DNA from: an uncultured delta proteobacterium
GTDB lineage: Bacteria; Desulfobacterota; Binatia; UBA9968
Assembly: GCA_963737905.1 (NCBI GenBank)
Contig: CAVTUQ010000043.1
Location: 12,555-76,554 of the forward strand
Length of the DNA: 64,000 nucleotides
Direction: 5' to 3'
Below, one piece after another: positions 873 to 46,423 of this stretch. Each line of letters opens with the position of its first letter. Position 1 is the first letter of the stretch. The notes under the pieces are model-generated. The model did no database searches and had not been told where the DNA came from. It was given only the letters and a program-made list of their open reading frames with translations. A program made the position numbers and the translations under genes.

Positions 873-2120
873 ATGCGGCGTTCACTCTGGATTCTCATAC
901 TGCTGCTGGTTCTGGGTGGCTTTGCGGGAATCCAACAGTACACTTCTTGGTCGTTAAGTAAGCCTCAGCCTAAGTCTGAAGGAGCGTCCGCTGGCCGGGC
1001 GCAGCAGGGTCGCCCTGCGGGTGGACGATCGCGCGAAGCCGTACCTGTCCTCGTCGCTACTGCCGAGCGGAAAACGATGCCTCTCCAGGTTCGGGCGGTC
1101 GGCAACGTCGAGGCTTACTCCACCGTTGCCGTCAAAAGTCAGGTTACGGGCGTGCTCACGAAAGCCCACTTCATAGAGGGTCAAAATGTCAAAAAAGGAC
1201 AGCTACTCTTCACCATCGACCCCCGTCCATTTGAAGCGGCTTTGAAACAATCCGAGGCGAACCTGGCGCGGGACGCAGCACAGCTAGAAAACGCGCAAGA
1301 ACAGGCCCGCCGTTACTTGGAGCTGGTCAAGAAACAGTTCGTTTCGAAGGAGCAGTACGATCAGATCCGCACCAACGCTGCTGCCCTGGAAGCGGTGGTG
1401 GAGGCGGACAAAGCCGCGGTGGAAAATGCTAAAGTTCAGTTGAGCTATTGTTATATTTATTCGCCGATAGACGGGCAACTGGGAACCTTGCTGGTGAACG
1501 AAGGTAACTTGGTGCGAGTTAACGATGCCGCTCCTTTGGTGGTGATTAATCAGGTTGCACCTATTTACGTAACTTTTTCGGTGCCGGAGCAAAATTTGCC
1601 CGACATTAGACGCCATATGGCTGCGGGCAGTCTCAAAGTCGAAGCGAGCTTCCAGTCCGACGAGGGGCGCCCGGCAGAGGGAAATCTCGCCTTCATCGAC
1701 AATGCCGTTGACCGTACCACCGGAACGATCAAACTCAAGGCGGAATTTAAGAATGCCGACAAACGCCTATGGCCGGGCCAATTCATCAACGTAGCTTTAA
1801 CCCTGTCTACGCAGTCCGATGCGATCGTCATACCGTCGGAAGCGGTCCAGGTCGGCCAGGAAGGTCAACATGTGTTTGTCGTGAAACCCGACAAGACAGT
1901 CGAGATGAGACCGGTCACTGTGGGGCAAACAAATGAAGGCGAAGCCATCATTGCCAGCGGGCTGGCGGCGGGAGAGAAAATCGTGCGAGAAGGACAATTT
2001 CTGCTCGGACCCGGATCCCGAATAGAGATCAAAGATCCCAGCACAACGGCGGCAAAAGAGGGGAAGAGAGAACGAGCACGTCCAAGTAAAGCCAAGAAAG
2101 GAGAAAGGGGCGAGTCATGA
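873..2120 (+). CDS. RND efflux periplasmic adaptor (MdtA-like membrane fusion protein)
   Basis: N-terminal TM anchor, lipoyl/hairpin motifs (EGQNVKKGQLLFTIDPRPF, IYSPIDG, IDNAVDRTTGT, LWPGQF). Confidence 0.92.
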   Translation: MRRSLWILILLLVLGGFAGIQQYTSWSLSKPQPKSEGASAGRAQQGRPAGGRSREAVPVLVATAERKTMPLQVRAVGNVEAYSTVAVKSQVTGVLTKAHFIEGQNVKKGQLLFTIDPRPFEAALKQSEANLARDAAQLENAQEQARRYLELVKKQFVSKEQYDQIRTNAAALEAVVEADKAAVENAKVQLSYCYIYSPIDGQLGTLLVNEGNLVRVNDAAPLVVINQVAPIYVTFSVPEQNLPDIRRHMAAGSLKVEASFQSDEGRPAEGNLAFIDNAVDRTTGTIKLKAEFKNADKRLWPGQFINVALTLSTQSDAIVIPSEAVQVGQEGQHVFVVKPDKTVEMRPVTVGQTNEGEAIIASGLAAGEKIVREGQFLLGPGSRIEIKDPSTTAAKEGKRERARPSKAKKGERGES

Positions 2121-5100
2121 ATATCTCCGGGCTCTTCATTCGTCGGCCGATCACCACGACCCTGGTAATGGTCGGCATACTCATGTTCGGTCTGATGGGG
2201 TATAAATCCCTTCCGGTAAGCGATTTACCGCCCGTCGACTTCCCCACGATCGTAGTCAGTGCCAATCTGTCCGGCGCTAACCCGGATACGATGGCCGCCA
2301 CGGTGGCGACGCCCTTGGAAAAGCAATTCGCGACGATTGCGGGACTGGATTCCATAAATTCGGTTAGCACGCTCGGTCGCACACAAATCACACTCCAGTT
2401 CAATTTGAGCCGCGATATCGATGCCGCGGCGCAGGACGTGCAGTCGATGATCTCGCGAACACTGCGCGACCTGCCGCCGAGCATGAACTAACCCGCCGTC
2501 GTATCGAAAGGTAAATCCGGCAAACAATTCCATTTTTTTGATGGCGCTAACGTCGGAGTCTCTCCCACTATCAACAGTAGATGAGTACGCGGAGAGCATC
2601 TTGGCCCAGCGCATCTCCATGATCAGCGGGGTTGCCCAGGTAAACATCTTTGGCGAGCAAAAGTACGCCGTGCGCATTCAGCTCGACCCGAATCAGCTGG
2701 CGGCGCGGCAGATCGGCATGGACGATGTTGTCAACGCCATACAACGGGGCAATGTTGACGTGCCGGTGGGAACCTTGGACGCTCCCAACCGGGCTTTCAC
2801 ACTCGTTTCAGAAGGCCAGCTCAAAAATGCGGAGGCTTTTCGCCCCCTCGTGGTTGCCTATCGCAACGGCGCTCCGGTTCGGCTTCAAGATCTCGGGAAA
2901 GTCCTTGACAGCGTAGCGGATACTCGGGTCGCAAGCTGGTTTAAAGATAAACGGGCGATCATTTTAGGCGTGCAACGGCAGGCCGGGGCCAACGTCGTTG
3001 AGGTCGTCGATGCGATTAAAGAAGTTCTGCCGGAGCTTCGGAAGCAGATTCCGCAATCCATCAATCTGGATGTTTTCTTTGACCGCACTCAGGGCATTCG
3101 TGAATCGGCCCATGATGTCCAGCTGACGCTGATAGGCACGATCGTCCTGGTCATCCTGGTGATCTTTCTCTTCCTGCGCAATATTTCGGCGACGATCATA
3201 CCGAGCTTGGCGTTGCCGATGTCGATCGTCGGCACTTTCGCGGTGATGTATCTGCTCGATTATAGTCTGGACAACCTCTCGCTCATGGCTCTCACCCTGG
3301 CCGTAGGATTCGTCGTCGACGACGCCATCGTCGTGCTGGAAAATATCGTGCGCCACATGGAAGAAGGCGAGCCGCCCTACGAAGCGGCGGTGAAGGGCGC
3401 TAAAGAGATCGGATTTACGATCGTTTCTATGACTATTTCTCTGGTGGCTGCATTTATCCCGGTGCTGTTCATGAGCGGCATGATCGGCCGGCTGCTGCGA
3501 GAATTTTCCGTCACGATTTGCGTGGCGATCCTGGTTTCCGGGTTTATCTCCTTAAGCTCTCACTCCCATGCTATGCAGCCGTTATCTCCGGCCGCCCGCC
3601 ACGCAAAAGCACGGCTGGTTGTACAACTTTTTGGGACGTTGTCTGGACTCGATGAATAGAGGCTATGAAATTTCGCTCCGCTGGGTGATGAAGCACCACG
3701 TCGCGACCTTCGTTGCCTCCATCATCGTGTTGTTAGCGACGATTCACATGTTTGGCTTGGTCCCCAAAGGTTTCATTCCGAGCGAAGATACCGGGCAAAT
3801 TCTCATCAATACCGAAGGGGCTGAAGGGGTATCTTTTACCCAGATGACTCAGTACCAGCAGCAATTGGCCAACATCGTTGCCGAGGACCCTAACGTCGAG
3901 TCTTTTTTCTCGAGCATCGGTATCGGTGGAAACAGTGTGACGGGTAATTCCGGCCGTATTTTCATCAAACTCAAGGACCGGTCGGAGCGGCCTTTGACCG
4001 CGGACGAAGTCATCCGGGAGCTACGGCCTAAACTGTCGGGCGTCCCGGGAGTCCGTGTCTCGCTTCAGAATCCCCCGGTGATTCGAATCGGCGGACGGCT
4101 TAGCCGAAGCCTTTACCAATTCACAATGCAGAGCACGGATGCGAAGGAACTCTTTCGTTATGCCTATCAGTTTGAGGAAAAGTTAAAGGCCCTTCCGGAT
4201 TTCAGGGATGTCGCTAGCGATCTACAAATTCGCAATCCGCAGTTGCAAGTGGTGGTTGACCGCGACAAGGCGTCAACCATGGGGATTACCGCCCAGGGGA
4301 TTTCGCAACGCCAAATCGAGGAGGCGTTCTGGAATTCCTATGCGACCCGGAAAGTTTCGACGATCAATACCCCGAATAATCAGTACGACGTCGTTTTGGA
4401 GCTGGATCCAAAGTTTCAGAAAGATCCATCGGCGCTGTCGATGCTTTATATTCGCTCCACGAACACGCAAAACGCGACAGCCCAACCGATGGTACCCCTG
4501 GGCTCCGTGGCGAAAATCATATACAGCGCCGGTCCGCTGTCGGTGAATCACTCGGGACAGCTACCTTCGGTTACGCTTTCATTTAACTTACGGGAGGGAG
4601 TTGCTCTCGGCGACGCGGTCGCAACGATCGACAAGTTGGCCCGCGATATCCTTCCGGGAACCATCACCACGAGTTTTCAGGGGACGGCTCAGGAATTTCA
4701 AAGGTCCATTAGCAGTCTCTGGATGCTTCTTGCATTGGCCGTGTTCGTTGTTTATCTGGTTTTGGGAATTCTTTATGAGAGCTTTATTCACCCGCTGACG
4801 ATTCTTTCGGGTCTGCCGTCAGCCGGCTTGGGCGCGTTGATCGCTCTGTACTACTTCGGCATGGACTTGAGTATCTATGCTTTTGTCGGCTTGATCATGC
4901 TCATCGGCATCGTGAAGAAAAACGCCATCATGATGATCGACTTCGCGCTGGAAGGCCAACGGAACGAGGGCAAGAGTCCCGCCCAGGCGATTTATGAAGG
5001 CGCCCTGGTGCGATTTCGGCCGATTATGATGACGACCATGGCCGCGATCATGGGAGCCGTGCCGATTGCTCTCGGGTGGGGCGCAGGGGCGGAAGCGCGT

Positions 5101-41232: not shown

Positions 41233-42069
41233 ATGGCCGGCATTCTTTACATCGTTGCCACTCCCATCGGTAATCTCGAAGACATCACCTTGCGGGCGCT
41301 GCGAGTGCTTAAAGAGGTCGATGTGATCGCCGCCGAGGACACGCGTCACACGCAGATTCTTCTGAGTCATCACGACATTCATACGCCGCTAACCAGCTAT
41401 CATGAGCACAACGAGAAAACCAAAGCCCGGGAGCTGGTTACACGGCTGGCACGGGGTCAGACTATTGCCCTGGTGTCTGATGCGGGTACGCCATCGATCT
41501 CCGACCCGGGCTTTCGATTAGTCGTACAAGCTATCCGTGCCGGGGTGCGGATCATTCCGATACCCGGTGCCTCAGCTCTGACCGCTGTTCTGAGCGCCAG
41601 CGGCTTGCCTACGGATAGATTCATCTTCGAGGGCTTTCTGCCAGCCAAGAAAAAGCAGAGGCGGGAAAGACTCCAGGCCCTGCGCAATGAAACCCGGACG
41701 TTGATCCTTTACGAAGCCCCGCATCGGCTGAAAGACGCTCTCGACGACATTCACGAGTTGCTAGGAAATCGCGATGCGGTGCTGGCTCGAGAAGTGAGCA
41801 AGATCCATGAGGAGTTTCTGCGCGGGCCTATAGGCGAGCTGGTCCGCGCGCTCGGAGCCGGTGAGATTCGCGGAGAAGTGACGCTCATCGTCAGCGGCGG
41901 GGCAAGTGCATCCCGCGTTAACGAGGATCTGTTGAAAGCTGAAATTCGCGAGCTCGAAGGCAAGGGGTTGCGGGTTAAGGAAATCGCTGAGGTCTTGGGG
42001 GAAAAATTCGGTTACCCCAAAAAGGAAATTTATCGCTTAGCACTGCAGCGACAAAAGGTCAGCCCTTAA
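41233..42069 (+). CDS. rsmI: 16S rRNA C1402 2'-O-methyltransferase
   Basis: LYIVATPIGNLEDITLRAL, AAEDTR, LVSDAGTPSISDPG, FEGFLP, YEAPHR. Confidence 0.95.
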   Translation: MAGILYIVATPIGNLEDITLRALRVLKEVDVIAAEDTRHTQILLSHHDIHTPLTSYHEHNEKTKARELVTRLARGQTIALVSDAGTPSISDPGFRLVVQAIRAGVRIIPIPGASALTAVLSASGLPTDRFIFEGFLPAKKKQRRERLQALRNETRTLILYEAPHRLKDALDDIHELLGNRDAVLAREVSKIHEEFLRGPIGELVRALGAGEIRGEVTLIVSGGASASRVNEDLLKAEIRELEGKGLRVKEIAEVLGEKFGYPKKEIYRLALQRQKVSP

Positions 42070-43448
42070 ACTTGTACTCTTCCAGCTTGCGGTACAAGGT
42101 GGTTCGGTCCACACCCAGAGTTTTGGCAGCTTCGGTTTTGTTCCCATGGACGGTTTCCATGACTCGCATGATATATTCTTTTTCCAAATCCCTGAGAGTG
42201 TAGGATTTTGCAAGCGCCTCGGCCACCGGGAGGACGTTGTCGTTGCGTGCGACCAGCGAAGGCGGCAAGGTCTTGCAAACCGATCCGCGGCTCTTTGCCG
42301 AGAAGTACCGCCCTTTCTATGGTGTGTTCCAGCTCTCTGACGTTTCCCGGCCAGTGATAGTTCGTGAGGGCACTAAGGGCTTCCGGCTCGATGCCATCCA
42401 GTTGCCGTTGAATCTGGCCGCTAAATTTTCGCATGAAGTGCTCGATCAGAATTGGAATATCTTCCGCTCTCTCGCGCAGCGGCGGCAGATCAATTCGGAT
42501 TACGTTGAGCCGGTAGTAGAGATCCTGCCGGAAGCGGCCTTCCTGAACCAGACGCTCCGGATCGCGGTTACAAGCCGAAACCAACCGGGCGTCGATCTTC
42601 TCCCCGTGGTTTGCTCCCAAGGGTCTCACTTCTTTATCCTCGATCACCCGCAGCAGTTTGGCCTGTAGATTGAGCGGAATCTCGCTGATTTCGTCGAGAA
42701 ACAGGACGCCACCGTGAGCTGCGCTAAACAACCCGCGTCGATCCTTCCGGGCGTCGGTAAAAGCGCCGCGCACGTAACCGAAAAGTTCGCTCTCCAAAAG
42801 CGTCTCCGGGATCGCAGCGCAGTTGATAGGAATAAACGATTTTGTGGCCCGACCGCTGTGTTGATGAATCGCCCGGGCGATCATTTCCTTGCCGGTTCCG
42901 CTTTCCCCCACGATGAGGACGTTGACAGCAAGATCGCTTACGTGAGCGACGAGCTCAAAGGTTTCCCGCATCCTTGCGCTCTGACCGATGATATTTTCAA
43001 ATCCATAGTGACTGTGGACTTGCTTGCGCAGCCTTTCAACTTCGCTCTGCAGGCTGCGTTGCTCTAGAGCGCGGCTGACCTGAAGCAGGATTTCATCTGT
43101 GTGAAACGGCTTGGTCACATAATGGAACGCGCCTGCGTGCATGGCTTCCACCGCGCTTTCGATACTGCCAAAGGCCGTGATCAAAAGAACCAAGGCATGA
43201 GCATCGATCTCTCTAAGCTGTTTCACCAGTTCCGTTCCCCTCATGCGCGGCATCATAAGGTCGGTAATGGTTAAATCAAAGCTATCCGCTCGGTATCTTT
43301 CCACCGCCGAGGCACCGTCGTGAACCGTTTCGACGACGTAGCCCTCCTCGCCCAATAAATCGGCAAGGAACTGACACATCTCGCGATCGTCATCAACGAC
43401 GAGAATCTTGGCCGGGTTGGTGGTTTCCTGTTTGATTCCGGGAGTCAT
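42059..43448 (-). CDS. Sigma54-dependent response regulator (NtrC/ZraR/AtoC family), frameshift near 42269
   Basis: REC domain (VVDDD, TDLMMP), GESGTGKE, ELFG..GAFTDA, WPGNVREL; Fis-type HTH in ORF 42059..42268. Confidence 0.92.
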
Positions 43449-44982
43449 TGGAGGTCTCGCTGTGGTAGCTCGTTTGCTTCAGTTGTTCTGCAGGAAGGTA
43501 AATTATGAAGCGGGTGAAACGGCCGGGATCGCTTTCAACGTGAATATCACCGCCATGCTCCTGGATGATACCGTAAGTCACGGACAAACCTAGGCCGGTG
43601 CCCTCACCGATGTCCTTGGTGGTGAAAAAGGGATCAAATACACGACCGATATGCTCGGGGTCGATCCCGGTGCCGTTATCTTCGAATGAGATTCGCAGCC
43701 AACGACCGGGCGCAACCGAAGCCTTAGCCAGACCGCGATCGGTGATCTTCACGCCGATCTTGATCAAGCCGCCCGGACCTAACGCCTGGAGCGAGTTCGA
43801 ATAGAGATTGATAAACACTTGCTGGAGCAGATCGGGATCGGCATTGATTTTAGGTAGGTTGTTGAAACCCTCTGTTTCAACTCGGATATCTTTCTCGCGG
43901 AGCTGGTGTGCCAAAAGATATTTCACGTTGTCCAGCAGAGCTTGTAGATCGACAGGCTTAAAAACCGGTTCTCTGCGCCGGGAAAACTCCAGGAGCTGGC
44001 GGACGATAGCTGCGATGCGGTCGCTCTGGGAGCGGATGACAGCCAGATTATCCTTAAGCTCTTCGAGACTCCGGGGTCGACGCAAAAGATATTCGGATCG
44101 TCCGCCGATGATGTTGAGGGGCGTGCCGATTTCGTGCGCCAGACCTGCCGCTAGCCGTCCCACTGAGGCCAGCCGTTCAGTGTGACGGAGCTCCTGCTCG
44201 AGCCTGAGCTTCTCCTGTTGCTCCTCCAAGAGCCGGGCGTCACTCTCTTGTAGCTGACGGCACATGAGGTTAAATTCTCGAGCCAGCGAAGCGACTTCGT
44301 CATGGCCCTTTATTTCGATGCTTTGCTCCCGTTGGCCTTGAGCCATCTCTTTAATGCGGTGAATCAGTTGGTTAATTGGCCGGGTTACGCTGCGGCGCAC
44401 CAAAATCAGGACCAGAAGCGAGAGAAGAGCGACTAACACGGCCGCTGTCGCCAGAATTCGGTTGCGCCGCTGCTCAATGGTGGCGAAGGTTCCGTATCCC
44501 TGGCGAGCGAGCACGAATGCTCCCACAAGGTGATTGCTCGAGTCGACAATCCCTTCTATTCGATAGTAGATCAAATTCCTGTGCTCCTGAATATAACCGT
44601 CGATTCCGTTGCCGCTCTGTAGAACGGGTCGGGGATCTAATTTTGTGATGGGAGTCGGATCCAGCTCTGGAAAATCCGTCCCATACCGCATCGAGGCCGA
44701 ATGGGCCACGGGCTTTCCCGATAGATCGTAGACTATGACTCCGTGGATATTGCCCCTCGGCGCCGCGGTGTCGATGAATTGCTGCACGGTACGGAGGTCC
44801 ACCTTGTCGGCGAGTGTACGGCTCAACCCCGCCTGCAAAACCCGGGAGAAGCCACGCATCCCTATGCTTAGCTCTCGCTTAATACTTTCTTGATCCTGTT
44901 GAATGCTTAGGTAGCCGTGCACCGTCATGATCAGAATGATGACGGCGACCAGAGAAATGATGAGTTTGGTCCCAAGATTCAT
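43393..44982 (-). CDS. Membrane sensor histidine kinase (periplasmic domain, HAMP, HisKA, HATPase)
   Basis: Two TM segments flanking a ~150-aa periplasmic domain; AHEIGTPL, EDNGTGI, FDPFFTTK, GTGLGL. Confidence 0.93.
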   Translation of the reverse strand: MNLGTKLIISLVAVIILIMTVHGYLSIQQDQESIKRELSIGMRGFSRVLQAGLSRTLADKVDLRTVQQFIDTAAPRGNIHGVIVYDLSGKPVAHSASMRYGTDFPELDPTPITKLDPRPVLQSGNGIDGYIQEHRNLIYYRIEGIVDSSNHLVGAFVLARQGYGTFATIEQRRNRILATAAVLVALLSLLVLILVRRSVTRPINQLIHRIKEMAQGQREQSIEIKGHDEVASLAREFNLMCRQLQESDARLLEEQQEKLRLEQELRHTERLASVGRLAAGLAHEIGTPLNIIGGRSEYLLRRPRSLEELKDNLAVIRSQSDRIAAIVRQLLEFSRRREPVFKPVDLQALLDNVKYLLAHQLREKDIRVETEGFNNLPKINADPDLLQQVFINLYSNSLQALGPGGLIKIGVKITDRGLAKASVAPGRWLRISFEDNGTGIDPEHIGRVFDPFFTTKDIGEGTGLGLSVTYGIIQEHGGDIHVESDPGRFTRFIIYLPAEQLKQTSYHSETSNDSRNQTGNHQPGQDSRR

Positions 44983-45102
44983 TTAGATGTTTGGTCCATA
45001 AGCAGCAATCATCATACCGAGAATTGAGCGCAAAAAAACAATGCCAGATCGTTAAGAAATCAGCTCTATCCCAATGGGTATTGACTTAACCGACCGATGA
45101 TT

Positions 45103-45139
45103 TGTTGCAATCTACTGCGCCGCGTGGCGATTTGCAACG
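45103..45139. promoter_or_regulatory. Putative upstream activator sites for the sigma54 promoter
   Basis: TGTTGCAATCTAC and GTGGCGATTTGCAAC (outer inverted GTTGCAA...TTGCAAC), about 150-190 bp upstream of the -24 box. Confidence 0.5.
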
Positions 45140-45290
45140 CGAATAAAAACACGCAAATTTAATAAGTTAGCCTTAACTGAAGGCTTAGGGCTACAAAAGA
45201 TCCGAGTTGCCGTGTGAGGCGCCGAAGGGGAGATCGGTGAGAAGTCTTAGAATTCCCAGATGATTTTAGTTTTGAGCTGGCGATAATTGA

Positions 45291-45305
45291 TGGCACACAG
45301 CTTGC
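45291..45305 (+). promoter_or_regulatory. Sigma54 -24/-12 promoter
   Basis: TGGCAC-ACAGC-TTGC, exact TGGCAC-N5-TTGC consensus. Confidence 0.88.
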
Positions 45306-45357
45306 GGTATAGCCATTCATTAGTTCAATGGAATTCAGTGAAAGGAGGTGAAAAAAA

Positions 45358-45483
45358 ATGAAAAAGTTCGCAATTGCATTGGCCATCGTTTTGGGTCTCG
45401 TTAGCTCAATCGTTAGCCTATCCGCCCCGGTAAGTTATGCGCAGGAGGAGCCGGAGCCGAAGCCAGACAAGCCAGGTGATTAA
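45358..45483 (+). CDS. 41-aa secreted peptide precursor (not in ORF track): MKKFAIALAIVLGLVSSIVSLSAPVSYA|QEEPEPKPDKPGD
   Basis: RBS AAAGGAGGTG, classic Sec signal peptide (KK, hydrophobic core, Pro turn, SYA), stop TAA, own promoter and terminator. Confidence 0.8.
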   Translation: MKKFAIALAIVLGLVSSIVSLSAPVSYAQEEPEPKPDKPGD

Positions 45484-45508
45484 GGATCGACCAGGCGCAC
45501 TATCCCTC

Positions 45509-45547
45509 ATAGATAAGGGGATGATACATCCCCTTATCTATATTTTT
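45509..45547 (+). terminator. Rho-independent terminator of the peptide gene
   Basis: ATAGATAAGGGGATG-ATA-CATCCCCTTATCTAT (15-bp stem) followed by ATTTTT. Confidence 0.85.
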
Positions 45548-45591
45548 GTCCGGAGCATATCGAAACGCACAAAGTAGGTCGATAACCGAGG

Positions 45592-45882
45592 TTAACGCTT
45601 TACAAAAAAAGTTTGAAATTCTCCCCTTGAAGCTTCCCACTCTGTGCTAACGTCTTTGACCTGTGCTCCCGGTGGTCCGCTCCGGCACCAGCGGATCAGC
45701 TTTTCCAGTTCTTCTCTTTCTCCTTCGGCAACGACCTCTACGGAGCTATCGGGACAGTTCATCACCCACCCGGTTACACCCAGCCGTCGGGCTTGCTCCA
45801 CCGTTGATGCGCGGAAGTAGACCCCCTGGACCCTGCCGTTGATCTTTAAATGGACACGCACTGGGTCTTTCATCGCCGCCAT
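45592..45882 (-). CDS. acyP: Acylphosphatase
   Basis: GRVQGVYFR, GWVMN, VEVVAEG, GPPGAQV. Confidence 0.92.
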   Translation of the reverse strand: MAAMKDPVRVHLKINGRVQGVYFRASTVEQARRLGVTGWVMNCPDSSVEVVAEGEREELEKLIRWCRSGPPGAQVKDVSTEWEASRGEFQTFFVKR

Positions 45883-45975: not shown

Positions 45976-46114
45976 TACGCCCATTTGAAAGGGTCATTTT
46001 ACCGAAGAGCATGCCGAGAGATTGGCTCCTGCTGATGAGACCGTTTGCGGCCCTGCCCTTTGGGTAAGCGATCCCGAAAATGTAGCGTTTCTAGGCGCAA
46101 CTAGGAGGGCTAAT

Positions 46115-46423
46115 ATGGGAGCAAAGCTATACGTGGGAAATCTTCCCTACTCGGTGACCGAAGAGCGGCTCCAGCAACACTTCGCTCAGCACGGCTCCGT
46201 GGTGAGCGCTCGGATCATCACTGATAAATTCAGTGGAAGATCCAAGGGGTTCGGTTTCGTGGAAATGAGTTCCGATCAAGAGGCTGAACGGGCGACAGCT
46301 GCCCTCAACGGCACGGATTTTGAGGGGAGAAACATTGTCGTCAGTGAAGCGCGGCCCCAACAACAGCGAGCCCCAGGACCGATGGGTGGAGGAGGCAGGC
46401 CACCGCGCGGTAATCGCTACTAA
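46115..46423 (+). CDS. RRM (RNP-1) RNA-binding protein with Gly/Arg-rich tail
   Basis: LYVGNL (RNP2), KGFGFVEM (RNP1); RBS AGGAGG before ATG 46115. Confidence 0.93.
   Translation: MGAKLYVGNLPYSVTEERLQQHFAQHGSVVSARIITDKFSGRSKGFGFVEMSSDQEAERATAALNGTDFEGRNIVVSEARPQQQRAPGPMGGGGRPPRGNRY

Follow-up and report, generated by a model that had tools for sequence, protein, structure and literature searches.

A 64-kb stretch of DNA from an uncultured member of the Binatia (the window, to whose positions all unprefixed coordinates refer) carries a micro-gene of 41 codons that is a real gene under coding selection, as judged from its codon pattern across relatives, and whose product is a 41-residue precursor comprising a predicted Sec signal peptide and a 13-residue acidic, Pro-rich, disordered peptide. 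With its own promoter and terminator, the micro-gene forms a compact, independent transcription unit at 45291-45548 that is predicted to depend on sigma-54, divergent from the genes of a sensor histidine kinase with a PDC-like sensor domain and of an NtrC-type response regulator. Comparison of related genomes indicates that the micro-gene is inherited and lost together with this adjacent kinase and regulator, and the two probably control it, judging by the sites that lie between the divergent genes. The reading preferred here, held tentatively and at somewhat under even confidence, is that the product serves its own two-component system as a minimal accessory or feedback peptide in the periplasm.

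A preliminary description of the locus had listed an exact sigma-54 promoter at 45291, a strong ribosome-binding site (RBS), a 41-codon open reading frame (ORF) consisting mostly of signal peptide, and a 15-bp terminator beginning 25 nt past the stop codon, all of which were located as described (Table 1). The promoter sequence, TGGCACACAGCTTGC, is the sole exact match to TGGCAC-N5-TTGC in the window, and its GG/GC spacing is exactly 10 nt. When one mismatch was allowed, 4 matches were obtained vs 3.99 expected from shuffles, and since this count equals the shuffle expectation, weight was placed only on the exact match and its position. One rpoN gene (7.0e-62) is present in the genome to which the window belongs (the own genome; 6.7 Mb, 87% complete).

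Kinase orthologs were fetched from relatives, and in the first set examined (13 loci) a sigma-54 box directed away from the kinase was found 213-420 nt from the kinase start in 13/13, followed by an RBS and a signal-peptide ORF of 41-52 codons. A profile (A1) built on 12 ORFs of the Pro-rich kind, termed type A, matched 27 of the 90 genomes of the taxonomic family, in single copy each, and none of the 33 genomes of the order's two other families; the figure of 27 is a lower bound, because the type A profile overlooked divergent copies in two genomes (G058, G078). Among the 15 loci newly found with A1, a kinase ortholog was adjacent and divergent in 13, the other two being a kinase fragment at a contig end (G098) and a contig that was too short; the sigma-54 box was present in 15/15, and RBS and micro-ORF passed the filter in 14/15, the fifteenth (G045) having an 85-codon version. 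The type A loci examined for the box numbered 30 in 28 genomes, including loci that also carry the type B described below, one contig-end locus and one split locus. A box scoring 9-11 of 11 was present upstream of the micro-ORF in all 30, and start, RBS, frame and stop were kept in all 30 despite DNA divergence, with a GGAGG/GGGGG-type RBS preceding the homologous ATG at other loci.

A profile of the kinase N-terminal region matched 43 of the 90 family genomes, single copy each, and 39 of these 43 loci were assessable, four (G042, G048, G105, G099) being excluded as contig ends or split. An exported-peptide micro-ORF divergent from the kinase was present at every assessable locus (type A at 27, type B alone at 12), and was preceded by a sigma-54 box in 38/39 (27/27 type A, 11/12 type-B-only); type A outside the kinase-bearing genomes was seen only in G098, at the contig end with the kinase fragment. 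The arrangement of sigma-54 box, RBS and short signal-peptide ORF that the preliminary description expected beside kinase orthologs is therefore conserved. In a phylum sample of 401 genomes, 399 of them outside the family, the only matches to the kinase N-terminal profile outside the family were distant ones in 6 genomes (E values of 1e-17 to 1e-21), and beside these matches no divergent sigma-54 box with an exported micro-ORF was detected by the filter used; one sigma-54-like box near the distant kinases precedes an unrelated membrane protein.

For the coding pattern, 24 homologs were compared, giving 3842, 2380 and 6958 pairwise differences at codon positions 1, 2 and 3, respectively, such that the third position varies most; the differing codon pairs comprised 3380 synonymous and 5196 non-synonymous pairs. 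A hairpin of at least 6 pairs begins 2-41 nt past the stop in 24/24 loci (-10 to -38 kcal/mol), all but one being -19 kcal/mol or stronger and the weakest -10.1, several with T-runs. A chance ORF lying in a sigma-54-dependent small RNA or 5' leader might be considered, given that the product is very short and its mature part of low complexity, but this explanation is contradicted by the excess of third-position and synonymous differences and by the conserved start, RBS, frame and stop, and no Rfam family reached threshold at 44900-45700; it is accorded next to no chance. Matches to snoRNA models within the kinase gene (27.2 bits vs 60, sub-threshold) were taken as chance.

The micro-ORF had been described as too short for the ORF track, but gene callers do find such ORFs: in a collection of 5.8 billion proteins, 258 matched the profile (E up to 1e-3). 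No Pfam domains were found among the 120 matches listed of the 258, and among the matches listed all were unnamed or 'hypothetical' save one automatic JGI label, 'YceK'; the sources were metagenome-assembled genome (MAG) contigs of Candidatus Binatia or 'Deltaproteobacteria bacterium', and one labelled Chloroflexota. Longer forms accounted for 20 proteins, and all 9 of those inspected were N-terminal over-calls running through promoter and leader to the same C-terminus; since the inspected longer forms are of this kind, the micro-ORF is not part of a longer protein, and the possibility raised in the preliminary description that it is a truncated remnant of one did not hold.

Several features of the sample bear on these counts. 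Related genomes are non-independent observations, the assemblies are mostly fragmented MAGs, and the synteny counts include duplicate loci from the same genomes. The counts also include genomes flagged as unpublished, namely G012, whose type A locus L005 contributed to A1, A2 and the site matrix, and G068 (type A locus L046), with G048 (kinase only, not assessable) likewise flagged, and G006 only among the genomes searched for kinase orthologs. When flagged genomes were left out, type A loci went from 27 to 25 and kinase-bearing genomes from 43 to 40, and the conclusions were unaltered.

By inspection of the sequence, the precursor has the features of a Sec signal peptide, with an MKK start, a core of ~17 residues and the cleavage motif SAPVSYA|Q. 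The Ala at -1 (A28) is invariant in 12/12 and 67/67 aligned homologs, and is read from alignments only, because the pattern used to collect 125 distinct homologs fixed Ala at this position. Across those 125, the -3 residue is S in 115, V in 7 and T/A/G in 3, the -2 residue is mostly Y or F, and the +1 residue is Q in 104, D in 19 and E in 2, so that cleavage after SYA, as had been proposed, agrees with the -3/-1 rule throughout. The hydrophobic core has the consensus ALAIVLGLN, with A9 and V11 at least 90% conserved (67 sequences). The predicted mature tails of the 125 homologs are 13-25 residues long and consist of 32% Pro, 22% Glu, 13% Lys and 10% Asp, with a net charge of -1 to -5, Cys in 0/125 and an aromatic residue in 4/125; the predicted mature peptide of the window, QEEPEPKPDKPGD, has no Cys, His or aromatic residues. 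A KP[DE] motif lies near the C-terminus in 123/125 tails and QE.P is the conserved N-terminal motif, while length shifts by gain or loss of X-Pro units; the tail in G045 reaches 55 residues with both end motifs retained. From these features we infer that the precursor is cleaved, that the N-terminus may form pyroglutamate, and that the peptide may resist proteases.

Searches for known families gave nothing usable for the product: no Pfam family (E up to 0.01) and no usable match in an ESM Atlas look-alike search were found with the 41 residues, and no NCBIfam model scored above its cut-off on the micro-proteins. AimP_fam (14.8 bits vs a cut-off of 35) covered residues 1-22 only, i.e., the signal peptide, the TonB model matched one homolog (14.3 bits vs a cut-off of 265) by X-Pro composition only, and a weak NCBIfam match to LptM was confined to the signal peptide or X-Pro repeats; all three were rejected.

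Between the divergent genes, the preliminary description had placed palindromic activator-like sites. The sites are real, and 'palindromic' is better replaced by two tandem imperfect dyads. By pattern search, the tandem site lies 104-121 nt from the kinase start in 10/13 loci, and at one further locus this distance is 35 nt; in the window the site lies 150-190 bp upstream of the micro-gene promoter. A matrix for which only sites of other genera were used (11 sites, own genus excluded) scored the window site at 32.2 bits, the top of 13.4 million genome positions, the next match being at 22.4 bits with no sigma-54 box nearby; a matrix that included the own site likewise gave no second copy. The tandem site is an enhancer-like element conserved across genera, unique in the genome, and common to the micro-gene and the kinase operon. 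Single dyads upstream of sigma-54-like boxes were uninformative (10 pairs vs roughly 10 estimated by chance). For the kinase operon, a box of at least 8/11 consensus positions was found 14-26 nt before the kinase start in 19/26 loci vs 8/321 control windows; a kinase-facing promoter is probable rather than certain, because the implied leader of ~10 nt is unusually short. Full-length sigma-54 activators in the own genome number about 31.

Table 1. Positions of the features of the micro-gene locus in the window, and of type B loci in related genomes.
Feature	Position	Strand	Description
Upstream activator site	45103-45141	.	Tandem pair of imperfect 15-bp dyads (GTTGCA-N3-TGCAAC type), 21 bp apart
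Kinase-facing sigma-54-like box	45004-45019	-	8/11 consensus positions, GG and GC kept; ends 21 nt before kinase start
Sigma-54 promoter, -24 GG / -12 GC	45291-45305	+	TGGCACACAGCTTGC; predicted to drive the micro-gene
Shine-Dalgarno sequence	45341-45349	+	AAAGGAGGT; 9 nt upstream of ATG at 45358
Micro-ORF	45358-45483	+	41 codons; product MKKFAIALAIVLGLVSSIVSLSAPVSYAQEEPEPKPDKPGD
Predicted signal peptide	45358-45441	+	28 codons; MKK n-region, hydrophobic core, SAPVSYA c-region
Predicted mature peptide	45442-45483	+	QEEPEPKPDKPGD; 13 residues and stop codon
Intrinsic terminator	45509-45548	+	Hairpin 45509-45541, 15-bp stem, 3-nt loop, then ATTTTTG
Sensor histidine kinase	43393-44982	-	Transmembrane helix (TM) 1, periplasmic PDC-like domain, TM2, HAMP, HisKA, HATPase_c (Pfam)
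NtrC-type response regulator	42066-43448	-	Response_reg 2.4e-29, Sigma54_activat 6.6e-69, AAA_lid_14 4.8e-26; wrong-frame tail as deposited
Fis-type helix-turn-helix (HTH) of regulator, out of frame	42059-42268	-	1-nt insertion near 42266 parts HTH from main ORF
Acylphosphatase gene	45592-45882	-	Convergent with micro-gene
RRM-domain protein gene	46022-46423	+	
Type B loci	L008 3377-3511 (+); L057 1236-1358 (-); L068-L082; L115, L117		

For the kinase, residues 1-215 were modelled with AlphaFold2 from 24 aligned sequences (mean pLDDT 84.1), giving helices at 3-60 and 165-214 with an alpha/beta domain (63-162) between them. Foldseek matched this model to the WalK/YycG extracellular domain (5is1, E 7.5e-5), CitA (1p0z, E 6.3e-4) and DcuS (3by8, E 7.6e-4), as well as to 4ywz and to a modelled WalK-YycH complex with a membrane-anchored accessory protein (PDB 9a5d). 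No Pfam domain was found in the periplasmic region; on the model, the sensor is an extracytoplasmic PDC/PAS fold between two TM helices, which bears out the divergent kinase with a periplasmic domain of the preliminary description. Complex prediction with two kinase N-terminal regions (1-215) and the 41-residue precursor gave a score of 0.01 vs a mark of 0.32 and, run without controls, weighs neither way.

As an alternative, the signal peptide might be an uncleaved signal anchor that keeps the tail on the outer side of the inner membrane and modulates the kinase by helix-helix contacts, in the style of MgrB and PhoQ. For a signal peptide, the hydrophobic core shows high conservation, the best sensor-domain matches are to WalK/YycG, including the complex with the anchored YycH, and type B would likewise be membrane-tethered, via lipid. 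Nevertheless, a signal-peptidase-I site (helix-breaking Pro/Gly, small residue at -3, Ala at -1) is kept in all homologs, which an anchor would not need, and the hydrophobic segments of types A and B are dissimilar; anchoring is thus considered unlikely.

The adjacent regulator had been described as a sigma-54 activator, which holds for its receiver, AAA+ and lid domains, whereas the HTH is out of frame in the window. The extra base near 42266 (42255-42270) is absent from the same-genus ortholog, 11/11 orthologs have an intact HTH at the protein level, and one base at 42266 is likewise missing from contigs of DNA runs X1 and X2, which come from two studies; the extra base is likely an assembly error or a strain-specific lesion or pseudogene. 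Neither the kinase nor the regulator reached any NCBIfam equivalog cut-off: the ZraS equivalog scored 189.8 bits vs 479, over the catalytic half only, and the regulator is assigned to no named equivalog because ZraR (348 bits vs 760) and AtoC (429 bits vs 714) fell below their cut-offs. As called, the kinase stop and the first ATG of the regulator overlap by 56 nt (43393-43448), and the true regulator start is possibly further downstream.

At some kinase loci, the same slot holds a second product. Type B is an unrelated micro-ORF family with a lipobox signal peptide and a Gly/Ser/Gln-rich acidic tail of ~19-32 residues, and shows no similarity to type A in the hydrophobic segment. It was seen in G023, where the Pro-rich ORF is replaced by one of 45 codons that encodes a lipobox (LAGC) and a tail rich in Gly, Gln and Ser, and in G045, where a 41-codon lipoprotein ORF directly follows the Pro-rich ORF. 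A profile made from two sequences (A4) gave strong matches (E up to 1e-8) in 15 family genomes. Type B alone is divergent from a kinase ortholog in 11 genomes, and an almost invariant box, TGGCATCGCAATTGC, lies ~80 nt upstream in 10 of these 11, G066 being unflagged owing to the ORF-start setting; in G049, a more distant lipoprotein micro-ORF lies behind an 11/11 sigma-54 box. Some genomes have both types: in G045 type A precedes type B, in G071 the order is reversed, in G078 each type has a box to itself, in G017 type A is accompanied by a decayed B, and in G076 B is on another contig beside a kinase-less regulator. At this last locus (L074, G076 contig C3), a gene for a receiver and sigma-54 activator (1987-3105, +) is divergent from type B with no kinase between them, while the locus of type A, kinase and regulator is retained on a different contig. 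In L014 (G017), L058 (G071), L116 (G058) and L117 (G078), the type A ORF begins only about 250 nt after the sigma-54 box, and this gap holds the type B ORF in G071 and a type B remnant with a stop codon in G017.

A tree of kinase N-terminal regions (32 rows) groups the B-bearing kinases, with good support, in one clade that lies within the A-bearing ones, with G023 and G045 elsewhere, and the A/B labels require 4 changes vs a shuffled mean of 10.8; the direction of change is not shown by this tree because it is midpoint-rooted. Since type B accompanies or replaces type A while the sensor domain is conserved, a specific pair of autoinducer and receptor is weakened. Such a diffusible autoinducer, in which the cleaved peptide would leave the cell, accumulate with density and be sensed by the PDC domain with sigma-54-driven positive feedback, could draw on the kinase-facing sigma-54-like box, which makes positive autoregulation plausible, on the strict co-inheritance of a peptide gene with a receptor-like kinase, and on a circuit seemingly without another target. 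Against this, a lipid-anchored type B cannot diffuse and yet replaces type A, tail length is unconserved, and the unit has no gene for an exporter, processing enzyme or outer-membrane channel, its neighbours being genes for acylphosphatase, an RRM protein and LigA. In addition, the peptide of ~1.4 kDa is above the usual porin limit, and the sole family hint, the sub-threshold AimP_fam match, is restricted to the signal peptide. Diffusible signalling is the least supported of the rival exported-peptide readings and is regarded as very improbable. In a related form, a peptide-sensing circuit, a Sec-exported peptide of 13-25 residues, released by signal peptidase (and possibly N-terminally cyclised), would be the ligand of the adjacent PDC kinase, and this kinase would amplify both the peptide and itself via the sigma-54 regulator. 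This form is given only a slim chance; if true, it would amount to an agr-like autoinduction loop made from the general secretion machinery alone in an uncultured lineage that is presumably diderm, judged by taxon, and the lipid-anchored type B would be its cell-bound, contact- or self-sensing version.

If the product is instead a periplasmic accessory or feedback peptide, as preferred here, the kinase would phosphorylate the adjacent regulator, which would bind the tandem site at 45103-45141 and from there fire both the micro-gene promoter and the weaker one of its own operon, in the manner of ZraR at zraP-zraSR. The precursor would be exported and cleaved, and the peptide would remain in the periplasm as the main product of the system, acting back on the kinase periplasmic domain (inhibiting or activating), like ZraP, CpxP, MgrB or QseG. 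In favour of this reading stand the coding pattern, the linkage to the kinase, the common control region, the export features of the precursor, the presence of the sequence in RNA libraries, and the precedents of ZraR, MgrB and QseG.

Several points weigh against this reading. Contact between peptide and kinase is hypothetical, and the tail is of low complexity, varying from 13 to 55 residues by gain or loss of X-Pro units. The interchange of A and B argues against a strictly sequence-specific ligand, and since an unrelated micro-lipoprotein replaces the peptide, a generic property would fit better than a specific ligand. Since no second tandem site is present in the genome, the peptide may be the sole output of the system, an effector with a job of its own. 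With ~31 activators in the genome, another activator could serve the micro-gene promoter, and if the insertion in the regulator is real, the module may be inactive in this strain. Finally, RNA-library contigs cannot prove transcription, given possible DNA carry-over. In these libraries, a 175-nt contig of run X19 corresponds to 45333-45507 with 1 mismatch, containing the entire ORF and lying inside the predicted transcript, and a further 192-nt contig lies in the kinase; run X20 (RNA) yielded kinase pieces along with others from the kinase-regulator junction. Since such contigs give no ends, strand or level, and DNA carry-over is possible, they are taken as presence in RNA libraries only, and the parts of the stretch uncovered by X19 and X20 contigs are no sign of silence. 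Near-identical sequence was found in soil and freshwater metagenomes (20 rows, 11 studies).

The main rival is a stand-alone envelope effector, in which small acidic disordered peptides would occupy the periplasm (type A) or cover a membrane leaflet (type B) and leave the kinase unaffected; the system would then sense an envelope or periplasmic condition, and the peptides would serve as, e.g., a cation buffer or a surface- or protein-shielding agent. This would agree with a tandem site that is unique in the genome with no other output visible, with the dyad and sigma-54-like box search, whose pairs at about the chance number gave no further targets, with the mutual replacement of unrelated types that share only size, export and net negative charge, and with a strong RBS and promoter suggestive of high output. 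On the other hand, no chemistry suggests itself for a peptide of 13 residues that lacks Cys, His and aromatic side chains, the conserved end motifs (QE.P and KP[DE]) suggest recognition by a partner, and the known divergent partners ZraP and CpxP both work in the envelope and feed back on the kinase. A purely effector role is thus possible, though on balance doubtful.

Acylphosphatase, RRM-protein and LigA genes make up a conserved housekeeping neighbourhood, and the first two flank the module in conserved synteny at most related loci, from which a functional link is not implied. Elsewhere in the own genome, five more strong sigma-54-like boxes were observed, at C9:131082 (-), C14:125788 (-), C26:85149 (+), C36:57985 (+) and C36:6755 (-), and in each case the next 200 nt hold an RBS and one or two ORFs of 27-87 codons with a signal-peptide-like or membrane-like start. 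Small envelope proteins driven by sigma-54 may be a recurrent theme in this genome.

No published description of the peptide family or system was found in the literature, supplementary material lying outside the search. What is new is two micro-protein families (A and B) within a known regulatory design, in an uncultured class; the layout was already known. Small exported products that tune kinases (ZraP, CpxP, MgrB, QseG) are, to our knowledge, known almost only from enterobacteria and were found singly. Here, a family-level clade of uncultured soil and freshwater Binatia has the same design at its minimum, i.e., a strong sigma-54 promoter, a signal peptide and 13-25 disordered residues, with two unrelated peptide types interchangeable in one slot. 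Should feedback on the kinase prove true, the peptide would be shorter than any periplasmic accessory factor known so far, and easily tested in synthetic form, and should it be the only output of the system, the question becomes what use a 13-residue acidic peptide has in the periplasm. In either case, at least 258 'hypothetical' micro-proteins are placed in a genomic context, with predictions of their regulator and its binding site and a role that can be tested.

Among known systems, the TonB X-Pro spacer is like the type A tail in its alternating Glu-Pro and Lys-Pro units, a similarity of composition only. The peptides agr AIP, AimP and SHP are likewise made from short ribosomal precursors with an N-terminal export signal, encoded beside a sensor, in a positive feedback loop; unlike them, the locus described here has no dedicated processing or export genes in its conserved neighbourhood, a presumably diderm host, and a lipid-anchored alternative that replaces the peptide in some genomes. 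A signalling peptide of the AimP or Gram-positive type was accordingly rejected, AimP_fam being below cut-off and the conserved neighbourhood having no processing genes.

PMC2789325 describes MgrB as a small membrane peptide that belongs to the PhoP regulon and inhibits PhoQ. The likeness to MgrB-PhoQ/PhoP lies in a product of a few dozen codons, two-component control and a proposed action back on the kinase, whereas MgrB is an uncleaved 47-residue membrane protein and the micro-gene product keeps a signal-peptidase site. MgrB is not known to be encoded beside phoPQ and is sigma-70 dependent, and homology to it was rejected, no Pfam match having been found for the micro-gene product. According to PMC6075780 and PMC12691602, the target of the lipoprotein QseG is the periplasmic domain of QseE, the kinase in a sigma-54 system, and qseG is encoded inside the glmY-qseE-qseG-qseF operon according to PMC8745638. 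QseG-QseE/QseF (GlrK/GlrR) resembles the present module, and type B most closely, in having an exported accessory lipoprotein encoded with a kinase and a sigma-54-dependent regulator; QseG is full-size, whereas type B would mature to ~19-32 residues and has its own sigma-54 promoter.

For zraP-zraSR, ZraR drives the divergent sigma-54 promoters of zraSR and zraP, as given in passages of PMC4987338, and ZraP is described as a ZraSR repressor by the title of a work cited there. The window kinase and regulator are non-equivalogs of ZraS and ZraR, and the window sensor is PDC-like. ZraP, of ~140 residues, is a folded zinc-binding periplasmic protein, unlike the predicted 13-residue disordered peptide, and homology of the LTXXQ type (ZraP/CpxP/Spy) was rejected, as the 41-residue product has no Pfam match and a mature part of 13 residues. 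The layout itself agrees with the analogy drawn in the preliminary description: a kinase and an NtrC-type sigma-54 activator are divergent from a small, predicted exported product, with putative sigma-54 promoters facing both ways around a common conserved site.

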